Positions 53,703-64,000 of a stretch of 64,000 nt of DNA are shown here, in pieces. The notes beneath the pieces are model-generated. The model ran no database searches. It was not told the DNA's origin and saw nothing but the letters and a program-made list of their open reading frames with translations. The position numbers were made by a program, and so were the translations under genes. The stretch is from NCBI RefSeq assembly GCF_053078305.1, contig NZ_CP166879.1. One strand, written 5' to 3'. Positions within the stretch are counted from its first letter, which is position 1; each line of letters opens with the position of its first letter.

Positions 53703-55031
53703 TTAACGGCCTTTTGCCAGATATTGCTCCATCTCTTCTTCCGGCACCATTCCACCTCCCGTCGCCCACACCAGATGAGTGGTATTACGCAGTTGTTCTG
53801 CGCTGAAACCGTGCATCTGTTGGTAACTTACTGATGCACACACGCGCTGAGGTCCGGCCATACCCGCCAGTGCCGAAGGTTCAAGACGAATACCTTCTTC
53901 CTGCGCCAGCCAGCCAAGCATGTCATACATGGTTTGATCGCTAAGGGTATAGAAGCCATCCAGCAGACGCTCCATTGCCCGCCCGACAAAGCCTGATGCG
54001 CGACCAACTGCAAGGCCATCCGCTGCGGTAAGGTTGTCGATACCAATATCCTGAACAGAAATCTGATCGTGTAATCCTGTATGGACGCCTAACAACATAC
54101 AAGGGGAGTGCGTTGGTTCGGCAAAAAAGCAGTGAACATGATCGCCAAACGCCAGTTTAAGCCCGAATGCGACGCCACCAGGACCACCGCCAACACCACA
54201 CGGCAGATAGACAAACAGAGGGTTATCAGCATCGACGATACGGCCTTGCTGGGCAAATTGCGCTTTAAGACGCTGGCCAGCGACGGAATACCCAAGGAAC
54301 AACGTGCGGGAATTTTCGTCATCAATAAAGAAACAGTTCGGGTCAGACTGCGCTGCTTTACGTCCTTCCTCGACGGCAACACCATAATCTTGCTCATATT
54401 CCACGACCGTAACGCCATGGCTGCGCAGTTTCGCTTTTTTCCATGCCCGGGCATCAGCAGACATATGCACTGTCACCTTAAAGCCAATGCGGGCGCTCAT
54501 AATGCCGATTGATAACCCCAGATTTCCGGTTGAGCCCACAGCAATGCTGTATTGGCTAAAGAACTGTTTAAACTCCGGAGAAAGCAGTTTGCTGTAGTCA
54601 TCATCAAGCGTCAGCAACCCCGCTTCCAGAGCCAGTTTTTCTGCGTGTGCCAGGACTTCATAAATCCCGCCGCGTGCTTTTATGGAGCCGGAAATGGGCA
54701 AATGGCTATCTTTTTTCAGTAACAGTTGCCCGCTGATCGGTTGTTGATATTCCTTTTCCAGCCGTTTTTGCATAGCCGGAATGGCAACCAGTTCTGATTC
54801 AATAATCCCCCCAGTGGCAGCAGTTTCAGGAAATGCTTTTGCCAGATAGGGTGCAAAACGGGATAAGCGCGCATGGGCGTCCTGAACATCCTGTTCGGTC
54901 AGGCCAACATAAGGTAAACCTTCAGCCAATGAGGTCGTGCCAGGATTAAACCAGGTGGTTTCTTTAAGAGCAACCAGATCCTTTACCAACGGATACTGGG
55001 CGATGAGCGAGTTCATTTTAGCGTTTTCCAT
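53703..55031 (-). CDS. dsdA: D-serine ammonia-lyase (D-serine dehydratase)
   Basis: 442 aa PLP enzyme [31 protein letters not shown]..., PLP lysine in SGSIKARGG. Confidence 0.93.
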
Positions 55032-55048
55032 AGTACGTCTCTTTGCGC

Positions 55049-55279
55049 TTAGATGATAAATGACAGCAGGAATGTGCCCGCCAGAGCGACGACTGAAGCG
55101 ATAAATGTCGCTGTCGTATAGTATTTAAATGTTTCATTGAGCGTAGCGCCGCAATATTGCTTCACCAGCCAGAAAAGCGAGTCCGTAACGATCGTGCAGC
55201 CAATCGCGCCTGAACCGATAGCAATCGCAATAATTTCCGGGCTGATGTCGGGATACAGCGGCAGCACAATGATCCATAT
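55049..55279 (-). pseudogene. dsdX: 3'-terminal remnant of D-serine permease gene dsdX (GntP family)
   Basis: Only the last ~72 codons of a GntP-type permease are present immediately upstream of dsdA; reading frame is closed by a stop at 55280-55282. Confidence 0.7.
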
Positions 55280-55373
55280 TTATATTTTCTTCTCCAGGTT
55301 GGCGATGCCAGTTGGCATGTTTTACTTACTTGCCTATATGGTTACTCGTTGGCGAGAACAGAGGCGGAATTGG

Positions 55374-55385
55374 GGACAATTGTCC
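55374..55385. promoter_or_regulatory. perfect 12-bp palindrome upstream of cscR
   Basis: GGACAATTGTCC about 110 bp upstream of cscR start; candidate operator. Confidence 0.25.
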
Positions 55386-55497
55386 GGGAATTATTGTTAT
55401 TTTTTATTGTATTGCCGTGTCAGGTGATAGGGCGTTGGATCTCGCCAGTGACGTCTGTTTCTGCTACAGTGCCCGTTTTACGGCAAACGGCTTGGGT

Positions 55498-56493
55498 ATG
55501 GCTTCATTAAAGGATGTCGCACGCCTGGCGGGAGTGTCGATGATGACAGTCTCCCGGGTGATGCATAATGCAGAATCTGTGCGTCCTGCAACGCGTGACC
55601 GCGTATTGCAGGCAATCCAGACCCTGAATTATGTTCCTGATCTTTCCGCCCGTAAGATGCGCGCTCAAGGACGTAAGCCGTCGACTCTCGCCGTGCTGGC
55701 GCAGGACACTGCTACCACTCCTTTCTCTGTTGATATTCTGCTTGCCATTGAGCAAACCGCCAGCGAGTTCGGCTGGAATAGTTTTTTAATCAATATTTTT
55801 TCTGAAGATGACGCTGCCCGCGCGGCACGTCAGCTGCTTGCCCACCGTCCGGATGGCATTATCTATACTACAATGGGGCTGCGACATATCACGCTACCTG
55901 AGTCTCTGTATGGTGAAAATATTGTATTGGCGAACTGTGTGGCGGATGACCCAGCGTTACCCAGTTATATCCCTGATGATTACACTGCACAATATGAATC
56001 AACACAGCATTTGCTCGCGGCGGGCTATCGTCAACCGTTATGCTTCTGGCTACCGGAAAGTGCGTTGGCAACAGGGTATCGTCGGCAGGGATTTGAGCAG
56101 GCCTGGCGTGATGCTGGACGAGATCTGGCTGAGGTGAAACAATTTCACATGGCAACAGGTGATGATCACTACACCGATCTCGCAAGTTTACTCAATGACC
56201 ACTTCAAATCGGGCAAACCAGATTTTGATGTTCTGATATGTGGTAACGATCGCGCAGCCTTTGTGGCTTATCAGGTTCTCCTGGCTAAGGGGGTACGTAT
56301 CCCGCAGGATGTCGCCGTAATGGGCTTTGATAATCTGGTTGGCGTCGGGCATCTGTTTTTACCGCCGCTGACCACAATTCAGCTTCCACATGACATTATC
56401 GGGCGGGAAGCTGCATTGCATATTATTGAAGGTCGTGAAGGGGGAAGTGTGACGCGGATCCCTTGCCCGCTGTTGATCCGTTGTTCCACCTGA
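55498..56493 (+). CDS. cscR: LacI-family sucrose operon repressor
   Basis: 331 aa from MASLKDVARLAGVSMMTVSRVMHN (LacI HTH); the track ORF from 55312 is an upstream extension. Confidence 0.85.
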   Translation: MASLKDVARLAGVSMMTVSRVMHNAESVRPATRDRVLQAIQTLNYVPDLSARKMRAQGRKPSTLAVLAQDTATTPFSVDILLAIEQTASEFGWNSFLINIFSEDDAARAARQLLAHRPDGIIYTTMGLRHITLPESLYGENIVLANCVADDPALPSYIPDDYTAQYESTQHLLAAGYRQPLCFWLPESALATGYRRQGFEQAWRDAGRDLAEVKQFHMATGDDHYTDLASLLNDHFKSGKPDFDVLICGNDRAAFVAYQVLLAKGVRIPQDVAVMGFDNLVGVGHLFLPPLTTIQLPHDIIGREAALHIIEGREGGSVTRIPCPLLIRCST

Positions 56494-56500
56494 TATTATG

Positions 56501-57934
56501 TTAACCCAGTTGCCAGAGTGCTCCATGTTGCACCACAGCCACTCCGTGGGAGGCATAAAGCGACAGTTCCCGTTCTTCTGGCTGCGGATAGATTCGACTA
56601 CTCATCACCGCTTCCCCGTCGTTAATAAATACTTCCACGGATGATGTATCGATAAATATCCTTAGGGCGAGCGTGTCACGCTGCGGGAGGGGAATACTAC
56701 GGTAGCCGTCTAAATTCTCGTGTGGGTAATACCGCCACAAAACAAGTCGCTCAGATTGGTTATCAATATACAGCCGCATTCCAATGCCGAGCTGTAATCC
56801 GTAATGTTCGGCATCACTGTTCTTCAGCGCCCACTGCAACTGAATCTCAACTGCTTGCGCGTTTTCCTGCAAAACATATTTATTGCTGATTGTGCGGGGA
56901 GAGATAGATTGATGCTGCTGGCGTAACGACTCAGCTTCGTGTACCGGGCGTTGTAGGAGTTTGCCATTGCTCTCTGATAGCTCGCGCGCCAGCGTCATGC
57001 AGCCTGCCCAGCCTTCACGTTTTGAGGGCATTGGCGATTCCCACATATCCATCCAGCCGATAACAATACGCCGACCATCCTTCGCTACAAAGCTTTGTGG
57101 TGCATAAAAGTCATGCCCGTTATCAAGTTCAGTAAAATGCCCGGATTGTGCAAAAAGTCGTCCTGGCGACCACATTCCGGGTATTACGCCACTTTGAAAG
57201 CGATTTCGGTAACTGTATCCCTCGGCATTCATTCCCTGCGGGGAAAACATCAGATAATGCTGATCGCCAAGGCTGAAAAAGTCCGGACATTCCCACATAT
57301 AGCTTTCACCCGCATCAGCGTGGGCCAGTACGCGATCGAAAGTCCATTCACGTAATGAACTGCCGCGATAAAGCAGGATCTGCCCCGTGTTGCCTGGGTC
57401 TTTCGCCCCGACTACCATCCACCATGTGTCGGCTTCACGCCACACTTTAGGATCGCGGAAGTGCATGATTCCTTCTGGTGGAGTGAGGATCACACCCTGT
57501 TTCTCGAAATGAATACCATCCCGACTGGTAGCCAGACATTGTACTTCGCGAATTGCATCGTCATTACCTGCACCATCGAGCCAGACGTGTCCGGTGTAGA
57601 TAAGTGAGAGGACACCATTGTCATCGACAGCACTACCTGAAAAACACCCGTCTTTGTCATTATCGTCTCCTGGCGCTAGCGCAATAGGCTCATGCTGCCA
57701 GTGGATCATATCGTCGCTGGTGGCATGTCCCCAGTGCATTGGCCCCCAGTGTTCGCTCATTGGGTGATGTTGATAAAACGCGTGATAACGATCGTTAAAC
57801 CAGATCAGGCCGTTTGGATCGTTCATCCACCCGGCAGGAGGCGCGAGGTGAAAATGGGGATAGAAAGTGTTACCCCGGTGCTCATGAAGTTTTGCTAGTG
57901 CGTTTTGCGCCGCATGCAATCGAGATTGCGTCAT
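56501..57934 (-). CDS. cscA: sucrose-6-phosphate hydrolase / invertase (GH32)
   Basis: 477 aa from MTQSRLH...; GH32 motifs WMNDPNG, FRDPKV, WECPD. Confidence 0.88.
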   Translation of the reverse strand: MTQSRLHAAQNALAKLHEHRGNTFYPHFHLAPPAGWMNDPNGLIWFNDRYHAFYQHHPMSEHWGPMHWGHATSDDMIHWQHEPIALAPGDDNDKDGCFSGSAVDDNGVLSLIYTGHVWLDGAGNDDAIREVQCLATSRDGIHFEKQGVILTPPEGIMHFRDPKVWREADTWWMVVGAKDPGNTGQILLYRGSSLREWTFDRVLAHADAGESYMWECPDFFSLGDQHYLMFSPQGMNAEGYSYRNRFQSGVIPGMWSPGRLFAQSGHFTELDNGHDFYAPQSFVAKDGRRIVIGWMDMWESPMPSKREGWAGCMTLARELSESNGKLLQRPVHEAESLRQQHQSISPRTISNKYVLQENAQAVEIQLQWALKNSDAEHYGLQLGIGMRLYIDNQSERLVLWRYYPHENLDGYRSIPLPQRDTLALRIFIDTSSVEVFINDGEAVMSSRIYPQPEERELSLYASHGVAVVQHGALWQLG

Positions 57935-57966
57935 TTTAATCATCCTGGTTAAGCAAATTTGGTGAA

Positions 57967-58044
57967 TTGTTAACGTTAACTTTTATAAAAATAAAGTCCC
58001 TTACTTTCATAAATGCGATGAATATCACAAATGTTAACGTTAAC
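57967..58044. promoter_or_regulatory. cscA / cscKB divergent control region with two copies of a LacI-type operator palindrome
   Basis: TGTTAACGTTAAC occurs at 57967-57980 and 58032-58044 (core GTTAACGTTAAC is palindromic). Confidence 0.55.
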
Positions 58045-58149
58045 TATGACATTTTGTGATCGAATATGCATGTTTTAGTAAATCCATGACGATTTTGCGA
58101 AAAAGAGGTTTATCACTATGCGTAAGTCAGATGAATTTAAGGGAAAAAA

Positions 58150-59064
58150 ATGTCAGCCAAAGTATGGGTTTTAGGGGATGCGGTAGTAGATCTCTTGCCA
58201 GAATCAGACGGGCGCCTACTGCCTTGTCCTGGCGGCGCGCCAGCTAACGTTGCGGTGGGAATCGCCAGATTAGGCGGAATAAGTGGGTTTATAGGTCGGG
58301 TCGGTGATGATCCTTTTGGTGCGTTAATGCAAAGAACGCTGCTAACTGAGGGAGTCGATATCACGTATCTGAAGCAAGATGAATGGCACCGGACATCCAC
58401 GGTGCTTGTCGATCTGAACGATCAAGGGGAACGTTCATTTACGTTTATGGTCCGCCCCAGTGCCGATCTTTTTTTAGAGACGACAGACTTGCCCTGCTGG
58501 CGACATGGCGAATGGTTACATCTCTGTTCAATTGCGTTGTCTGCCGAGCCTTCGCGTACCAGCGCATTTACTGCGATGACTGCGATCCGGCATGCCGGAG
58601 GTTTTGTCAGCTTCGATCCCAATATTCGTGAAGATCTATGGCAAGACGAGCATTTGCTCCGCTTGTGTTTGCGGCAGGCGCTACAACTGGCGGATGTCGT
58701 CAAGCTCTCGGAAGAAGAATGGCGACTTATCAGTGGAAAAACACAGAACGATCGGAATATATGCGCCCTGGCAAAAGAGTATGAGATCGCCATGCTGTTG
58801 GTGACTAAAGGTGCAGAAGGGGTGGTGGTCTGTTATCGAGGACAAGTTCACCATTTTGCTGGAATGTCTGTGAATTGTGTCGATAGCACGGGGGCGGGAG
58901 ATGCGTTCGTTGCCGGGTTACTCACAGGTCTGTCCTCTACGGGATTATCTACAGATGAGAGAGGAATGCGACGAATTATCGATCTCGCTCAACGTTGCGG
59001 AGCGCTTGCAGTAACGGCGAAAGGGGCAATGACAGCGCTGCCATGTCGACAAGAACTGGAATAG
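58150..59064 (+). CDS. cscK: fructokinase (ribokinase/pfkB family)
   Basis: 304 aa; pfkB motifs (VVDLLPE..., DSTGAGDAFVAGLL). Confidence 0.88.
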   Translation: MSAKVWVLGDAVVDLLPESDGRLLPCPGGAPANVAVGIARLGGISGFIGRVGDDPFGALMQRTLLTEGVDITYLKQDEWHRTSTVLVDLNDQGERSFTFMVRPSADLFLETTDLPCWRHGEWLHLCSIALSAEPSRTSAFTAMTAIRHAGGFVSFDPNIREDLWQDEHLLRLCLRQALQLADVVKLSEEEWRLISGKTQNDRNICALAKEYEIAMLLVTKGAEGVVVCYRGQVHHFAGMSVNCVDSTGAGDAFVAGLLTGLSSTGLSTDERGMRRIIDLAQRCGALAVTAKGAMTALPCRQELE

Positions 59065-59135
59065 TGAGAAGTAAACGGCGAAGTCGCTCTTATCTCTAAA
59101 TAGGACGTGAATTTTTTAACGACAGGCAGGTAATT

Positions 59136-60383
59136 ATGGCACTGAATATCCCATTCAGAAATGCGTACTATCGTTTTGCATCCAGTTACTCATTTCTCTT
59201 TTTTATTTCCTGGTCGCTGTGGTGGTCGTTATACGCTATTTGGCTGAAAGGACATCTAGGGTTGACAGGGACGGAATTAGGTACACTTTATTCGGTCAAC
59301 CAGTTTACCAGCATTCTATTTATGATGTTCTACGGCATCGTTCAGGATAAACTCGGTCTGAAGAAACCGCTCATCTGGTGTATGAGTTTTATCCTGATCT
59401 TGACCGGACCGTTTATGATTTACGTTTATGAACCGTTACTGCAAAGCAATTTTTCTGTAGGTTTAATTCTGGGGGCGCTCTTTTTTGGCCTGGGGTATCT
59501 GGCGGGATGCGGTTTGCTTGACAGCTTCACCGAAAAAATGGCGCGAAATTTTCATTTCGAATATGGAACAGCGCGCGCCTGGGGATCTTTTGGCTATGCT
59601 ATTGGCGCGTTCTTTGCCGGCATATTTTTTAGTATCAGTCCCCATATTAACTTCTGGTTGGTCTCGCTATTTGGCGCTGTATTTATGATGATCAACATGT
59701 GTTTTAAAGATAAGGATCACCAGTGCGTAGCGGCGGATGCGGGAGGGGTAAAAAAAGAGGATTTTATCGCAGTTTTCAAGGATCGAAACTTCTGGGTTTT
59801 CGTCATATTTATTGTTGGGACGTGGTCTTTCTATAACATTTTTGATCAACAACTTTTTCCTGTCTTTTATGCAGGTTTATTCGAATCACACGATGTAGGA
59901 ACGCGCCTGTATGGTTATCTCAACTCATTCCAGGTGGTACTCGAAGCGCTGTGCATGGCGATTATTCCGTTCTTTGTGAATCGGGTAGGGCCAAAAAATG
60001 CATTACTTATCGGTGTTGTGATTATGGCGTTGCGTATCCTTTCCTGCGCGCTGTTCGTTAACCCCTGGATTATTTCATTAGTGAAGCTGTTACATGCCAT
60101 TGAGGTTCCACTTTATGTCATATCCGTCTTCAAATACAGCGTGGCAAACTTTGATAAGCGCCTGTCGTCGACGATCTTTCTGATTGGTTTTCAAATTGCC
60201 AGTTCGCTTGGGATTGTGCTGCTTTCAACGCCGACTGGGATACTCTTTGACCACGCAGGCTACCAGACAGTTTTCTTCGCAATTTCGGGTATTGTCTGCC
60301 TGATGTTGCTATTTGGCATTTTCTTCCTGAGTAAAAAACGCGAGCAAATAGTTATGGAAACGCCTGTACCTTCAGCAATATAG
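59136..60383 (+). CDS. cscB: sucrose:H+ symporter (oligosaccharide:H+ symporter family, LacY-like)
   Basis: 415 aa 12-TM MFS ORF. Confidence 0.88.
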   Translation: MALNIPFRNAYYRFASSYSFLFFISWSLWWSLYAIWLKGHLGLTGTELGTLYSVNQFTSILFMMFYGIVQDKLGLKKPLIWCMSFILILTGPFMIYVYEPLLQSNFSVGLILGALFFGLGYLAGCGLLDSFTEKMARNFHFEYGTARAWGSFGYAIGAFFAGIFFSISPHINFWLVSLFGAVFMMINMCFKDKDHQCVAADAGGVKKEDFIAVFKDRNFWVFVIFIVGTWSFYNIFDQQLFPVFYAGLFESHDVGTRLYGYLNSFQVVLEALCMAIIPFFVNRVGPKNALLIGVVIMALRILSCALFVNPWIISLVKLLHAIEVPLYVISVFKYSVANFDKRLSSTIFLIGFQIASSLGIVLLSTPTGILFDHAGYQTVFFAISGIVCLMLLFGIFFLSKKREQIVMETPVPSAI

Positions 60384-60824
60384 ACGTAAACTTTTTCCGG
60401 TTGTTGTCGATATCTCCATATCCTTCAACCGGAAAATAATAATACTAAAATGCTTAGCCCTGCTAATAATCGCCTAATCCAAACACCTCATTCATGTTCT
60501 GGTACAGTCGCTCAAATGTACTCCGGATACACGGTTCGCTGATTTCCAGGACATTGTCGTCATTCAGCGACCTGTCGCGTGTATCACGGGCCTGCGAATT
60601 CATCAAGGAATGCATTGCGGAGTGAAGTATCGAGTCACGCCATATTTCGCTATCAGGATTCTGTGTGATGGTTACATCGCCCGGCCCAAGGCTGTTTAGT
60701 CATCAGCGCTTTCTGACAGTGCTGAGATTTCAACCTGTTGCAGTAAAAATGAGTAGATATAGGGCAAGTGTGCTGCCAAACCCATCGTTTACGGGATGAA
60801 GGTAGATTTGGTTTGAAGGGTATC

Positions 60825-60839
60825 TGGTGTCCCCTGCAG
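60825..60839 (-). other. prophage att core: copy of the 3' end of tRNA-Arg (argW-type)
   Basis: TGGTGTCCCCTGCAG is the reverse complement of ...CTGCAGGGGACACCA (3' acceptor end of tRNA-Arg-CCU as recalled); similarity stops after 15 nt, so this is a partial copy and not a tRNA gene. Confidence 0.5.
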
Positions 60840-60912
60840 ACATCTACTTGAAGCGGCAGGGGATTGATTGGAATGGTGTTTTTTAGATGTGAAAAATATT
60901 TTACCCGCTATT

Positions 60913-61113
60913 TTACCCATTGGCGCGGCTTAAGAGCTTATTTTTGAATTCACAATGGTCACGATATAACCATCTTGCTCGCCCGTGGATAACTTTGGCT
61001 TTAGGTAGGTCTCCGGACTTAATCCGGTCATAGATGAAGGTCTTACCGAAGCCAGTATCAGCCATGATGAATTTCAAATCAACCAGTGAATCAGGTTGTA
61101 GTTCGTGTTGCAT
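60913..61113 (-). CDS. torI: AlpA/TorI-type excisionase (recombination directionality factor)
   Basis: 66 aa MQHELQPDSLVDLKFIMADTGFGKTFIYDRIKSGDLPKAKVIHGRARW...; winged-helix Xis family; matches my recollection of TorI of the argW prophage. Confidence 0.6.
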   Translation of the reverse strand: MQHELQPDSLVDLKFIMADTGFGKTFIYDRIKSGDLPKAKVIHGRARWLYRDHCEFKNKLLSRANG

Positions 61114-61217
61114 GAGTGCTATCTCCGAATAGGGAATCGAACCTGCAAATCAGGCAATAAAAAAACCGCATTGATGCGGCGATGGTAGGTCTGGATATCT
61201 TGATAAATGAAAATGCC

Positions 61218-61496
61218 TCATCGAGTGTGAGGCGGTGTGATTCCATGGTTACCTCTGCTTTTTGAACGCATGTCACGTAACTTCTTAATGTGTTCTGCCG
61301 TTTCGATCTCTTCTGCTATCCGATCTGCATCAGCTTTATTCACAGGTTCAAAGTCATGATTAAAGCGGAACATGCTGGCGATACATGTTCTGCCTTTTCG
61401 GATGTAGTGAACTTTGTTGTGGTTAGAACGCAGGATTTTGCAGGGAGTGCCGTGGTGGTCGACGTACCAGGTGTTAGGCAAAATGATTCTGAACAT
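61218..61496 (-). CDS. hypothetical prophage protein
   Basis: 92 aa ORF co-oriented with the prophage early-left operon. Confidence 0.45.
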   Translation of the reverse strand: MFRIILPNTWYVDHHGTPCKILRSNHNKVHYIRKGRTCIASMFRFNHDFEPVNKADADRIAEEIETAEHIKKLRDMRSKSRGNHGITPPHTR

Positions 61497-61543
61497 TTTT
61501 ACACCTCAGTTGGACGATGTTGAAATTTGCTCCTTTGAGGTCA

Positions 61544-61762
61544 TCACAATCCCCATTGTTTGTTCTTAAGTTCGATCTCCTCCTGGCAACTTGCACAAGT
61601 CCGACAACCCTGAACGGCTAGGCGTCTTCGCTTATCTATGGGATCGCCACACTCACAACAATGAGTGGCAGATATAGCCTGGTGGTTCAGGCGGCGCATT
61701 TTTATTGCTGTGTTGCGCTGTAATTCTTCAATTTCTGATGCTGAATCAATGATGTCTGCCAT
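61544..61762 (-). CDS. DksA/TraR-family C4 zinc-finger protein (phage-encoded)
   Basis: 72 aa with CxxC-N17-CxxC (CCECGDPID...CRTCASC). Confidence 0.6.
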   Translation of the reverse strand: MADIIDSASEIEELQRNTAIKMRRLNHQAISATHCCECGDPIDKRRRLAVQGCRTCASCQEEIELKNKQWGL

Positions 61763-61860
61763 CTTTCATTAATCCCTGAATTGTTGGTTAATACGCTTGA
61801 GGGTGAATGCGAATAATAAAAAAGGAGCCTGTAGCTCCATGAAGATTTTGCTTTTCATGT

Positions 61861-62142
61861 TCACCGTTCCTTAAAGACGCCGTTTAACATACCGATTGCC
61901 AGACTTAAGTGAGTCGGTGTGAATCCCATCAGCGTTACCGTTTCGCGGTGCTTCTTCAGTACGCTACGGCAAATGTCATCGACGTTTTTATCCGGAAACT
62001 GCTGTCTGGCTTTTTTGATTTCAGAATTAGCCTGACGGGCAATACTGCGAAGGGCGTTTTCTTGCTGAGGTGTCATTGAACAAGTCCCATGTCGGCAAGC
62101 ATAAGCACACAGAATATGAAGCCCGCTGCCAGAAAAATGCAT
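61861..62142 (-). CDS. hypothetical prophage protein (start uncertain; internal Met would give about 71 aa)
   Basis: 93 aa ORF in the early-left region. Confidence 0.4.
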   Translation of the reverse strand: MHFSGSGLHILCAYACRHGTCSMTPQQENALRSIARQANSEIKKARQQFPDKNVDDICRSVLKKHRETVTLMGFTPTHLSLAIGMLNGVFKER

Positions 62143-62152
62143 TCAGTGGTTG

Positions 62153-62344
62153 TCATACCTGGTCTCTCTCATCTGCTTCTGCTTTCGCCACCATCATTTC
62201 CAGCTTTTGTGAAAGGGATGTGGCTAACGTATGAAATTCTTCGTCTGTTTCTGCTGGTATTGGCACAAACCTGACTCCAATTTGAGCAAGGCTATGTGCC
62301 ATCTCAATGCTCGTTCTTAACTCAACAGGAGATGCTTTGTGCAT
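62153..62344 (-). CDS. hypothetical small prophage protein
   Basis: 63 aa ORF immediately downstream of exo in the same operon orientation. Confidence 0.4.
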   Translation of the reverse strand: MHKASPVELRTSIEMAHSLAQIGVRFVPIPAETDEEFHTLATSLSQKLEMMVAKAEADERDQV

Positions 62345-62495
62345 ACAGCCCCTCGTTTATTATTTATCTCCTCAGCCAGCCGCTGGGCTTTCAGTGGATT
62401 TTGGATAACAGAAAGGCCGGGAAATACCCAGCCTCGCTTTGTAACGGAGTAGACGAAAGTGATCGCACCTACCCGGATATTATCGTGAGGATGCT

Positions 62496-63176
62496 TCATC
62501 GCCATTGCTCCCCAAATACAAAACCAATTTCAGCCAGTGCCTCGTCCATTTTTTCGATGAACTCCGGCACCATCTCGTCAAAACTCGCCATGTAATTTTC
62601 ATCCCGCTCAACCACGACATAATGCAGGCCTTCACGCTTCATGCGTGGGTCATAGTTGGCAAAGTACCAGGCATCTTTTCGCGTCACCCACATGCTGTAC
62701 TGCACCTGGGCCATGTAAGCCGACTTTATGGCCTCGAAACCACCGAGCCGGAACTTCATGAAATCCCGGGAGGTAAACGGGCATTTCAGCTCAAGACCAT
62801 TGCCGTCACTGCATAAACCATCGGGAGAGCAGGCGGTGCGCATACTTTCGTCGCGATAGATGATCGGGGATTCAGTAACATTCACGCCGGAAGTGAATTC
62901 AAACAGGGTTCTGGCGTCGTTCTCGTACTGTTTTCCCCAGGCCAGCGCCTTAGCATTAACTTCCGGAGCCACACCGGTGCAAACCTCAGCCAGCAGGGTG
63001 TGGAAGTAGGACATTTTCATGTCAGGCCATTTCTTTCCGGAGCGGGGTTTTGCTATCACGTTGTGAACTTCTGAAGCTGTGATGACGCCGAGCCGTAATT
63101 TGTGCCACGCATCATCCCCCTGCTCGACAGCTCTCACGTCGATCCCGGTACGCTGCAGGATAATGTCTGGTGTCAT
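62496..63176 (-). CDS. exo: lambda-type 5'-3' exonuclease (Red alpha)
   Basis: 226 aa [37 protein letters not shown]...; matches phage lambda Exo as recalled. Confidence 0.9.
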
Positions 63177-63958
63177 GCTGCCACCTTCTGCTCAGTGGCT
63201 TTTTGTTTCAGGAATCCAAGAGCTTTCACTGCTTCGGCCTGTGTCAGTTCTGACGATGCACGAATGTCGCGGCGAAATATCTGGGAACAGAGCGGCAATA
63301 AGTCGTCATCCCATGTTTTATCCAGGGCGATCAGCAGAGTGTTAATCTCCTGCATGGTTTCATCGTTAACCGGAGTGATGTCGCGTTCCGGCTGGCGTTC
63401 TGCAGTGTATGCGGTATTTTCGACAATGCGCTCGGCTTCATCCTTGTCATAGATACCAGCAAATCCGAAGGCCAGGCGGGCACACTGAATCATGGCTTTA
63501 TGCCGTAACATCCGTTTGGGATGCGACTGCCACGGGCCGGTGATTTCTCTGCCTTCGCGGGTTTTGAATGGTTCGCGTCGGCATTCATCCATCCACTCGG
63601 TAACGCAGATCGGATGATTACGGTCTTTGCGGTAAATCCGGCATGTACAGGATTCATTGTCCTGCTCAAAGTCCATGCCATCAAACTGCTGGTTTTCATT
63701 GATGATGCGGGACCAGCCATCAACGCCCACCACCGGAACGATGCCGTTCTGCTTATCAGGGAAGGCGTAAATTTCTTTCGTCCACGGATTAAGGCCGTAC
63801 TGGTTGGCGACGATCAACAATGCGATGAACTGCGCATCGCTGGCATCGCCTTTAAATGCTGTCTGGCGAAGAGTGGTGATCAGTTCCTGTGGGTCGACAG
63901 AATCCATGCCGACACGTTCAGCCAGCTTCCCTGCCAGCGTTGCGAGTGCTGTACTCAT
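63173..63958 (-). CDS. bet: lambda-type single-strand annealing protein (Red beta)
   Basis: 261 aa [35 protein letters not shown]...; start overlaps exo by 4 nt. Confidence 0.9.
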
Positions 63959-63963
63959 CCGTT

Positions 63964-64000
63964 TTATACCTCTGAATCAATATCAACCTGGTGGTGAGCA
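63964..64000 (-). CDS. gam: Gam-like RecBCD inhibitor, C-terminal end only (gene continues beyond window)
   Basis: Minus-strand frame ends ...AHHQVDIDSEV* 5 nt upstream of bet start, consistent with the lambda Gam C-terminus. Confidence 0.6.
   Translation of the reverse strand, partial: AHHQVDIDSEV

Follow-up and report, generated by a model that had tools for sequence, protein, structure and literature searches.

We examined a prophage region in contig NZ_CP166879.1 (RefSeq assembly GCF_053078305.1). The window analysed is 64,000 nucleotides long, and all positions given are those of the window unless another locus is named. Our focus was the gap between an excisionase gene and the Red recombination genes, which holds five small minus-strand open reading frames (ORFs). 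The original prediction for this DNA had listed these ORFs, and the ORF table for 58000-64000 agrees with it in their coordinates, order and orientation (Table 1). The same prediction regarded the ORFs as uncharacterised and, apart from a 72-amino-acid (aa) DksA/TraR-type zinc-finger protein, as not assignable. We find that this is, with little doubt, the ordinary and already described 'exo-xis region' of a lambda-like prophage.

Table 1. Positions of the genes, hairpins and other features described in the text
Feature	Position	Strand	Length	Basis
bet (Red recombination gene, context)	63173-63958	-		ORF table
exo (Red recombination gene, context)	62496-63176	-		ORF table; 98% identical to lambda exo
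orf60a (DUF1317)	62317-62505	-	62 aa as listed	ORF table
Terminator-like hairpin t1, inside orf60a	62413-62435	-		Hairpin search; sequence listed as predicted t1 of lambda/phi24B (PMC4195576)
orf63 (DUF1382), dimeric pro-lytic protein	62153-62344	-	63 aa	ORF table
Candidate hydrophobic micro-ORF	62073-62156 (lambda locus L001, 3426-3509)	-	27 aa	Sequence, between orf63 and 71-aa orf61
orf61, unbroken Stx-phage-type form	61861-62142	-	93 aa as listed	ORF table
31-codon ORF spanning t2	61769-61864	-	31 codons	ORF table; hypothetical protein in phages SfI and Turner
Intrinsic-terminator-like hairpin t2, between orf61 and orf73	61815-61838	-		Hairpin search; matches predicted t2 of lambda/phi24B
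orf73, TraR/DksA-family protein	61544-61762	-	72 aa	ORF table
DUF4222 protein (RgdR family)	61218-61496	-	92 aa	ORF table
Mosaic junction	61165-61267	-		ORF 61091-61276; homology breakpoints; hairpin search; comparison with other excisionase modules
torI, KplE1-type excisionase and TorR inhibitor	60913-61113	-	66 aa	100% identity to AW1.7 torI ORF; phrog_66

A conserved block from exo to orf73

A megablast search with positions 60900-63200 against phage genomes returned 295 records, mostly at 95-99% identity. Many lambda isolates and Shiga toxin (Stx)-converting phages were among them. Compared with reference lambda, the window differs at very few bases between the end of exo and the 3' end of orf73, beyond which similarity ceases. 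The label 'uncharacterised' does not hold, since four of the ORFs are 90-97% identical in protein sequence to lambda orf60a, orf63, orf61 and orf73. Judged by sequence, the lambda names can simply be carried over to these four, and the fifth is a member of an established family, DUF4222. Matches to PHROG families agree with the Pfam assignments. More than ten papers deal with the exo-xis region, and the four named genes have been studied in lambda and in the Stx phage phi24B (PMC9239242, PMC10869804, PMC6213356, PMC8614690, PMC4195576). The likeness to lambda, and to the counterparts in phi24B and 933W, extends to gene set, order, strand and position right after exo. Lambda differs in what follows orf73. 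There, ea22, ea8.5, orf55, xis and int are found whereas, here, a DUF4222 gene, an excisionase remnant and torI take their place. Lambda also carries an extra A that truncates orf61, which is unbroken in the window.

Conservation was assessed in 80 IMG/VR loci fetched with orf63 as query. The order exo-orf60a-orf63-orf61-orf73 is the same in 79 of these, and the remaining contig stops before orf61. In one of the loci, every ORF is 100% identical to that in the window. On the 3' side of orf73 the content is mosaic (DUF4222, ea22-like genes, lambda orf55 and others), and at least three different excisionase/integrase modules follow. The original prediction described a variable slot for accessory genes and named a lack of conservation in related prophages as an outcome that would count against it. 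This is indeed an accessory region. However, few parts of these phages are as conserved as the stretch from exo to orf73, and mosaicism is confined to what follows orf73.

Ratios of non-synonymous to synonymous polymorphism (pN/pS) were calculated per reading frame from 30 distinct sequences from related loci. In the annotated frame, pN/pS was 0.14 for orf63, 0.13 for the 71-aa part of orf61 and 0.14 for orf73, compared with ~1-2 in shifted frames. Together with the evidence given below for orf60a and the DUF4222 ORF, we conclude that the five ORFs are, by their sequence conservation, real genes and not chance ORFs.

The zinc-finger assignment of the 72-aa ORF was borne out. The product matches the Pfam family zf-dskA_traR (E 4.5e-8), has PDB matches to TraR and YbiI, and is identical to lambda Orf73 at 64 of 71 positions. 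The N-terminal DxxDxA motif, which in this family extends to the active-site region of RNA polymerase, is intact (DIIDSA; D3, D6, A8) and the same as that of lambda Orf73. The zinc ligands, spaced CxxC-17-CxxC, are also intact (C35/C38 and C56/C59). The two extra cysteines typical of lambda Orf73 (C36 and C53) are present, and a basic RRR follows the first CxxC. These are the features shared with lambda Orf73 and F-plasmid TraR. In a search of the five ORFs against NCBIfam, matches were found solely for this protein. It scored 54.1 bits with the TraR subfamily model TIGR02419, below the 59.7 cut-off; for so short a protein, this model is strict. We place Orf73 in the TraR family because 90% identity to the tested lambda protein outweighs this shortfall. 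Compared with lambda Orf73, the window protein has seven substitutions and is one residue shorter. Five of the substitutions are within the last 11 aligned residues, in a C-terminal helix that corresponds to the part of TraR contacting beta Si1.

Lambda Orf73 is a TraR homologue that binds RNA polymerase at the DksA site, in the secondary channel. It inhibits the rrnB P1 promoter without guanosine tetraphosphate (ppGpp), with a half-maximal inhibitory concentration (IC50) of ~50 nM, and also inhibits a ribosomal-protein promoter. Host growth is slowed and phage yield after induction rises ~4-fold. Substitutions D3N and D6N, in the DxxDxA motif, lower activity (all PMC9239242). By transfer from lambda, Orf73 of the window is predicted to bind the secondary channel. 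Though named in the literature, lambda Orf73 is without annotation in NC_001416.

The orf63 product is identical to that of lambda at 58 of 63 positions. It matches Pfam DUF1382 (model positions 1-60 of 60, E 6e-30) and PDB entry 8DSB, the nuclear magnetic resonance (NMR) structure of lambda Orf63 (E 2.9e-32). Lambda Orf63 forms an intertwined dimer with a helix-binding cleft, as solved by NMR; without it, lysogeny and survival of the host are favoured. The residues of core and interface that the NMR study names (Val27, Ile29, Glu36, Leu44 and Lys47; PMC10869804) are all kept in the window.

The 62-aa ORF, orf60a, is identical to its lambda counterpart at 58 of 60 positions and spans Pfam DUF1317 in full (model positions 1-60 of 60, E 6e-40; phrog_1998). 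Phages of Salmonella and Klebsiella have divergent homologues of 52 aa (45-67% identity), encoded immediately downstream of exo or of a PerC-like gene. Synonymous sites are saturated among these homologues and pN is 0.25-0.34; one pair gives a dN/dS of 0.14. Hence, purifying selection acts among divergent homologues and orf60a is a real protein. A PDB sequence search with orf60a gave no match. Published AlphaFold and RoseTTAFold models of Orf60a suggest a beta-sheet DNA-binding fold like that of the Tn916 integrase (PMC8614690). Deletion of orf60a, or of orf61, shifts development to lysogeny and delays induction (PMC6213356).

The 93-aa ORF, orf61, is identical to lambda orf61 at 44 of 46 positions, up to the extra A. 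This A lies in an A-run at 62012-62017, which has six A in the window and in 77 of the 80 loci but seven in reference lambda (L001, ~3370). Hence, lambda orf61 is a frameshifted, truncated allele and the window holds the unbroken form. The truncated look of lambda Orf61 has been remarked before (PMC8614690). A 71-residue part of orf61 aligns in full in 77 of the 80 loci. Of the others, one has the lambda-type frameshift, one is the contig ending before the gene and one was not aligned. The protein belongs to phrog_303 (E 2.5e-43) and is identical to copies in Stx phages. It falls in no Pfam family, Pfam matches being insignificant. We disregarded two further labels. RefSeq names orf61 'cell division protein ZapA' in some records (e.g. 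NZ_CP073624); the Pfam ZapA match has an E of 0.024 over 34 residues, which is not significant, and the name is probably an annotation artefact. PDB matches of the 71-aa product are short, low-scoring ankyrin/DARPin segments (best E 0.0003, 24 bits) that we regard as spurious.

Gene boundaries, hairpins and micro-ORFs

Not all of the ORFs need be genes as drawn. On balance, we lean towards boundaries in which translation of the 93-aa ORF skips the first 22 codons and that of the 62-aa ORF the first two, with ORFs of 27 and 31 aa serving as spacers or encoding micro-proteins. For orf61, 52 divergent phage homologues align from the sequence MTPQQ, which begins at Met23 (62076). A Yersinia phage homologue is annotated with the start MTPEE and, in phage SfI, a different gene ends immediately before the equivalent of MTPQQ. 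Hence, the orf61 product most likely has 71 aa, from the ATG at 62076, and the upstream 22 codons would be outside the protein. RefSeq also annotates 71 aa in near-identical records. Conversely, Orf61 of phi24B has been treated as 93 aa, with residues 24-93 modelled by AlphaFold and RoseTTAFold as homeodomain-like (PMC8614690).

For orf60a, the start is most likely the third codon, an ATG at 62499 that overlaps the exo stop as ATGA. This gives a product of 60 aa, as in lambda. The 3' end of orf60a overlaps orf63 by 28 nt.

The codons upstream of Met23 overlap a candidate 27-aa hydrophobic ORF (MTTTECIFLAAGFIFCVLMLADMGLVQ). An ATGA overlap joins it to each neighbour, its start codon to the stop of orf63 and its TGA to the start of the 71-aa orf61. 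It can be recognised in lambda. Of the 80 loci, 79 have it too, with 26 or all 27 residues covered at 93-100% identity, and the other is a truncated contig. No annotation of it was found in the records examined. Across few sites, pN/pS is 0.44 in this frame and 0.76 in the overlapping one. The polymorphism counts that set this 84-nt stretch against the N-terminal extension of orf61 are few and weakly favour the 27-aa frame: the most frequent variant within the overlap leaves the 27-aa product unchanged but alters an amino acid in the 93-aa frame. Even so, the polymorphisms are too few to choose between frames. Furthermore, among the 30 distinct sequences, the start codon is lost in one and a premature stop occurs in one. 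The 27-aa ORF is an unproven candidate for a coding gene.

Hairpin t1 lies within orf60a and hairpin t2 (GGAGCTACAGGCTCC, then a T-run) lies between orf61 and orf73. Both were predicted in lambda and phi24B by Bloch et al. 2014, and t2 has been linked to reduced orf73/ea22 mRNA in lambda (PMC4195576). A literature search for the classical name tL3 for t2 found no usable source. The 31-codon ORF spans t2. Its start overlaps the orf61 stop (GTGA) and it ends 9 nt before orf73; pN/pS is 0.25, from few sites. Translation of this ORF might affect termination at t2.

The DUF4222 gene and the prophage end

The 92-aa ORF is the only one of the five without a counterpart in lambda. It is a member of Pfam DUF4222 (PF13973), with residues 3-53 aligned to model positions 1-53 of 53 (E 6.4e-19; phrog_285). 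RefSeq gives the same label to this ORF in near-identical E. coli and phage records. The family's one studied member is RgdR (ECs1581), from the cryptic prophage CP-933C/Sp7 of enterohaemorrhagic E. coli (EHEC) and from E. coli phage-inducible chromosomal islands (PICIs). RgdR, which binds DNA non-specifically, is an activator of LEE1 and type III secretion and a repressor of motility (PMC3378721, PMC10877973, PMC6092414). An RGD motif has been linked to the activation of type III secretion.

The window protein resembles RgdR of EHEC O157:H7 in its Pfam domain, length (92 and 99 aa), basic C-terminal part and location in a mobile element. The two are 24% identical (pairwise E 3e-6) and the RGD of RgdR, at residues 20-22, aligns to N-T-W in the window protein. 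Hence, we consider the latter a DUF4222 family member and not an RgdR orthologue. Context differs too. In lambdoid prophages, DUF4222 comes last before the excisionase but, in PICI/P4-like elements, it is just upstream of primase.

Around half of the 80 loci encode DUF4222. In most cases it immediately precedes the excisionase, and this is so with each of three unrelated excisionase/integrase modules. In 7 loci, a second, divergent DUF4222 type (33% identical) is located elsewhere. The family has few members; a phmmer/HMMER scan of 1.84 billion representatives gave 42 matches, all close family. An AlphaFold2 model, from a 19-sequence alignment, had a predicted local distance difference test score (pLDDT) of 84.3. 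In this model, a small five-stranded barrel (approximately residues 10-52) is followed by a helix (54-81) and a basic tail. We read the predicted fold as a generic SH3/Tudor-like barrel with a long helix. Foldseek found nothing in the PDB at E <= 0.001 and, in AFDB50, almost exclusively DUF4222 proteins. A PDB sequence search with the ORF gave no match, and the DUF4222 profile found insignificant retinoic-acid-receptor matches alone in the PDB. It is conceivable, although we judge it unlikely, that the protein is not a DNA-binding regulator. Instead, it could bind RNA polymerase through a Tudor-like barrel on the beta lobe, as for the UvrD C-terminal domain, CarD and Mfd. Such docking is a lead and not a result.

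Homology to other prophages breaks at 61267, within the C-terminal tail of the DUF4222 protein, and at 61184. The junction holds what is left of another helix-turn-helix excisionase gene, namely its first ~21 codons (MESHRLTLDEAFSFIKISRPT). After this remnant, just upstream of torI, there is a hairpin with a run of seven T (61180-61165). As a separate observation, a ~90-bp piece (61160-61251) is found again upstream of other excisionase types.

The excisionase of the original prediction is TorI. E. coli AW1.7 has a near-identical locus in which the corresponding ORF carries the annotation torI, and the two proteins are 100% identical. In PADLOC, TorI of the window matches an AlpA-like component. 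Beyond torI lies chromosomal DNA with the sucrose genes cscK and cscB. The gap between torI and cscB consists of ~530 bp of unannotated DNA without an integrase gene (60384-61113). Hence, the prophage ends here and the integrase must be outside the window. In the KplE1 prophage, the integrase is located at the end opposite torI. This would fit the layout here. As in the TorI/KplE1 (CPS-53) module of E. coli K-12, a torI-identical excisionase ORF lies at a prophage end with no adjoining integrase. The difference is that, in the window, the module is joined to a lambda-like early-left region and not to the KplE1 remnant. A scan of 55000-64000 found no transfer RNA (tRNA) gene, and no RNA family was matched by an Rfam search of 60300-63300 at a permissive threshold.

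Roles in prophage development

Our preferred interpretation is an exo-xis region of the lambda type: a run of small, closely spaced genes downstream of the Red genes, in several of which a stop codon overlaps the next start. The region of lambda is transcribed from pL, the early leftward promoter, once the prophage is induced or a cell is infected. Its products are dispensable and modulate the host and the choice between lysis and lysogeny. Judging from the published models, Orf60a and the 71-aa Orf61 may be small DNA-binding folds. The DUF4222 protein may be a small, basic, RgdR-type regulator of host transcription, acting through non-specific binding to DNA or through RNA polymerase. Hairpins t1 and t2, with the overlapping stop and start codons, could set the relative expression of the genes.

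Some observations weigh against this interpretation. Expression from pL is carried over from lambda, the promoter being outside the window. Phenotypes reported so far are modest, and they were obtained with lambda and phi24B rather than with this prophage. For Orf73, two papers are at odds over whether phage yield is raised or lowered. Within E. coli, orf60a has a pN/pS of 0.74 with no frame preference (30 distinct sequences). The DUF4222 protein is distant from RgdR and lacks RGD. Finally, of Orf60a, Orf61, Orf63, Orf73 and the DUF4222 protein, Orf73 is the only one with a demonstrated molecular mechanism.

The original prediction raised host-takeover and anti-defence functions. Host takeover stands for Orf73; roles in anti-defence or against RecBCD found no support from PADLOC. 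The prediction also named, as an outcome that would count against it, a match of the ORFs to lambda early-left proteins of known function. Such matches exist for four of the five, with a demonstrated mechanism for Orf73 alone. An anti-defence or RecBCD-directed cassette would suit the early-operon position beside the Red genes, where lambda also has Gam and Ral, and the fact that four of the proteins have no known target, but we hold it highly improbable. PADLOC had no match for four ORFs and a weak one for orf73 (E 0.0033, in the zinc-finger region, to a methyl-directed restriction enzyme model). From exo to orf73, the genes hardly vary across phages, unlike fast-turnover counter-defence genes, and the phenotypes described in publications relate to host transcription and to the choice between lysis and lysogeny.

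Two broader proposals can be made. In one, DUF4222 proteins (here, RgdR and the PICI copies) would be RNA polymerase-docking Tudor-like factors. In the other, a translationally coupled 27-aa membrane micro-protein would be encoded between orf63 and orf61 in lambda and its relatives. We consider these proposals decidedly unlikely. If the first were true, lambdoid prophages and satellites would use DUF4222 factors beside the TraR-like Orf73 to retune host transcription.

We conclude that the genes downstream of exo are those of a lambda-like exo-xis region. The main value of this assignment is that a false lead is averted; discovery work is not needed because the genes can be annotated by transfer from lambda and from studies of Stx phages. 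What this prophage adds to work on exo-xis regions is small and not new biology: an unbroken orf61, a DUF4222 gene and a possible 27-aa ORF. The genes of this region influence induction of Shiga-toxin prophages, and Orf73 is the one for which the mechanism is known.

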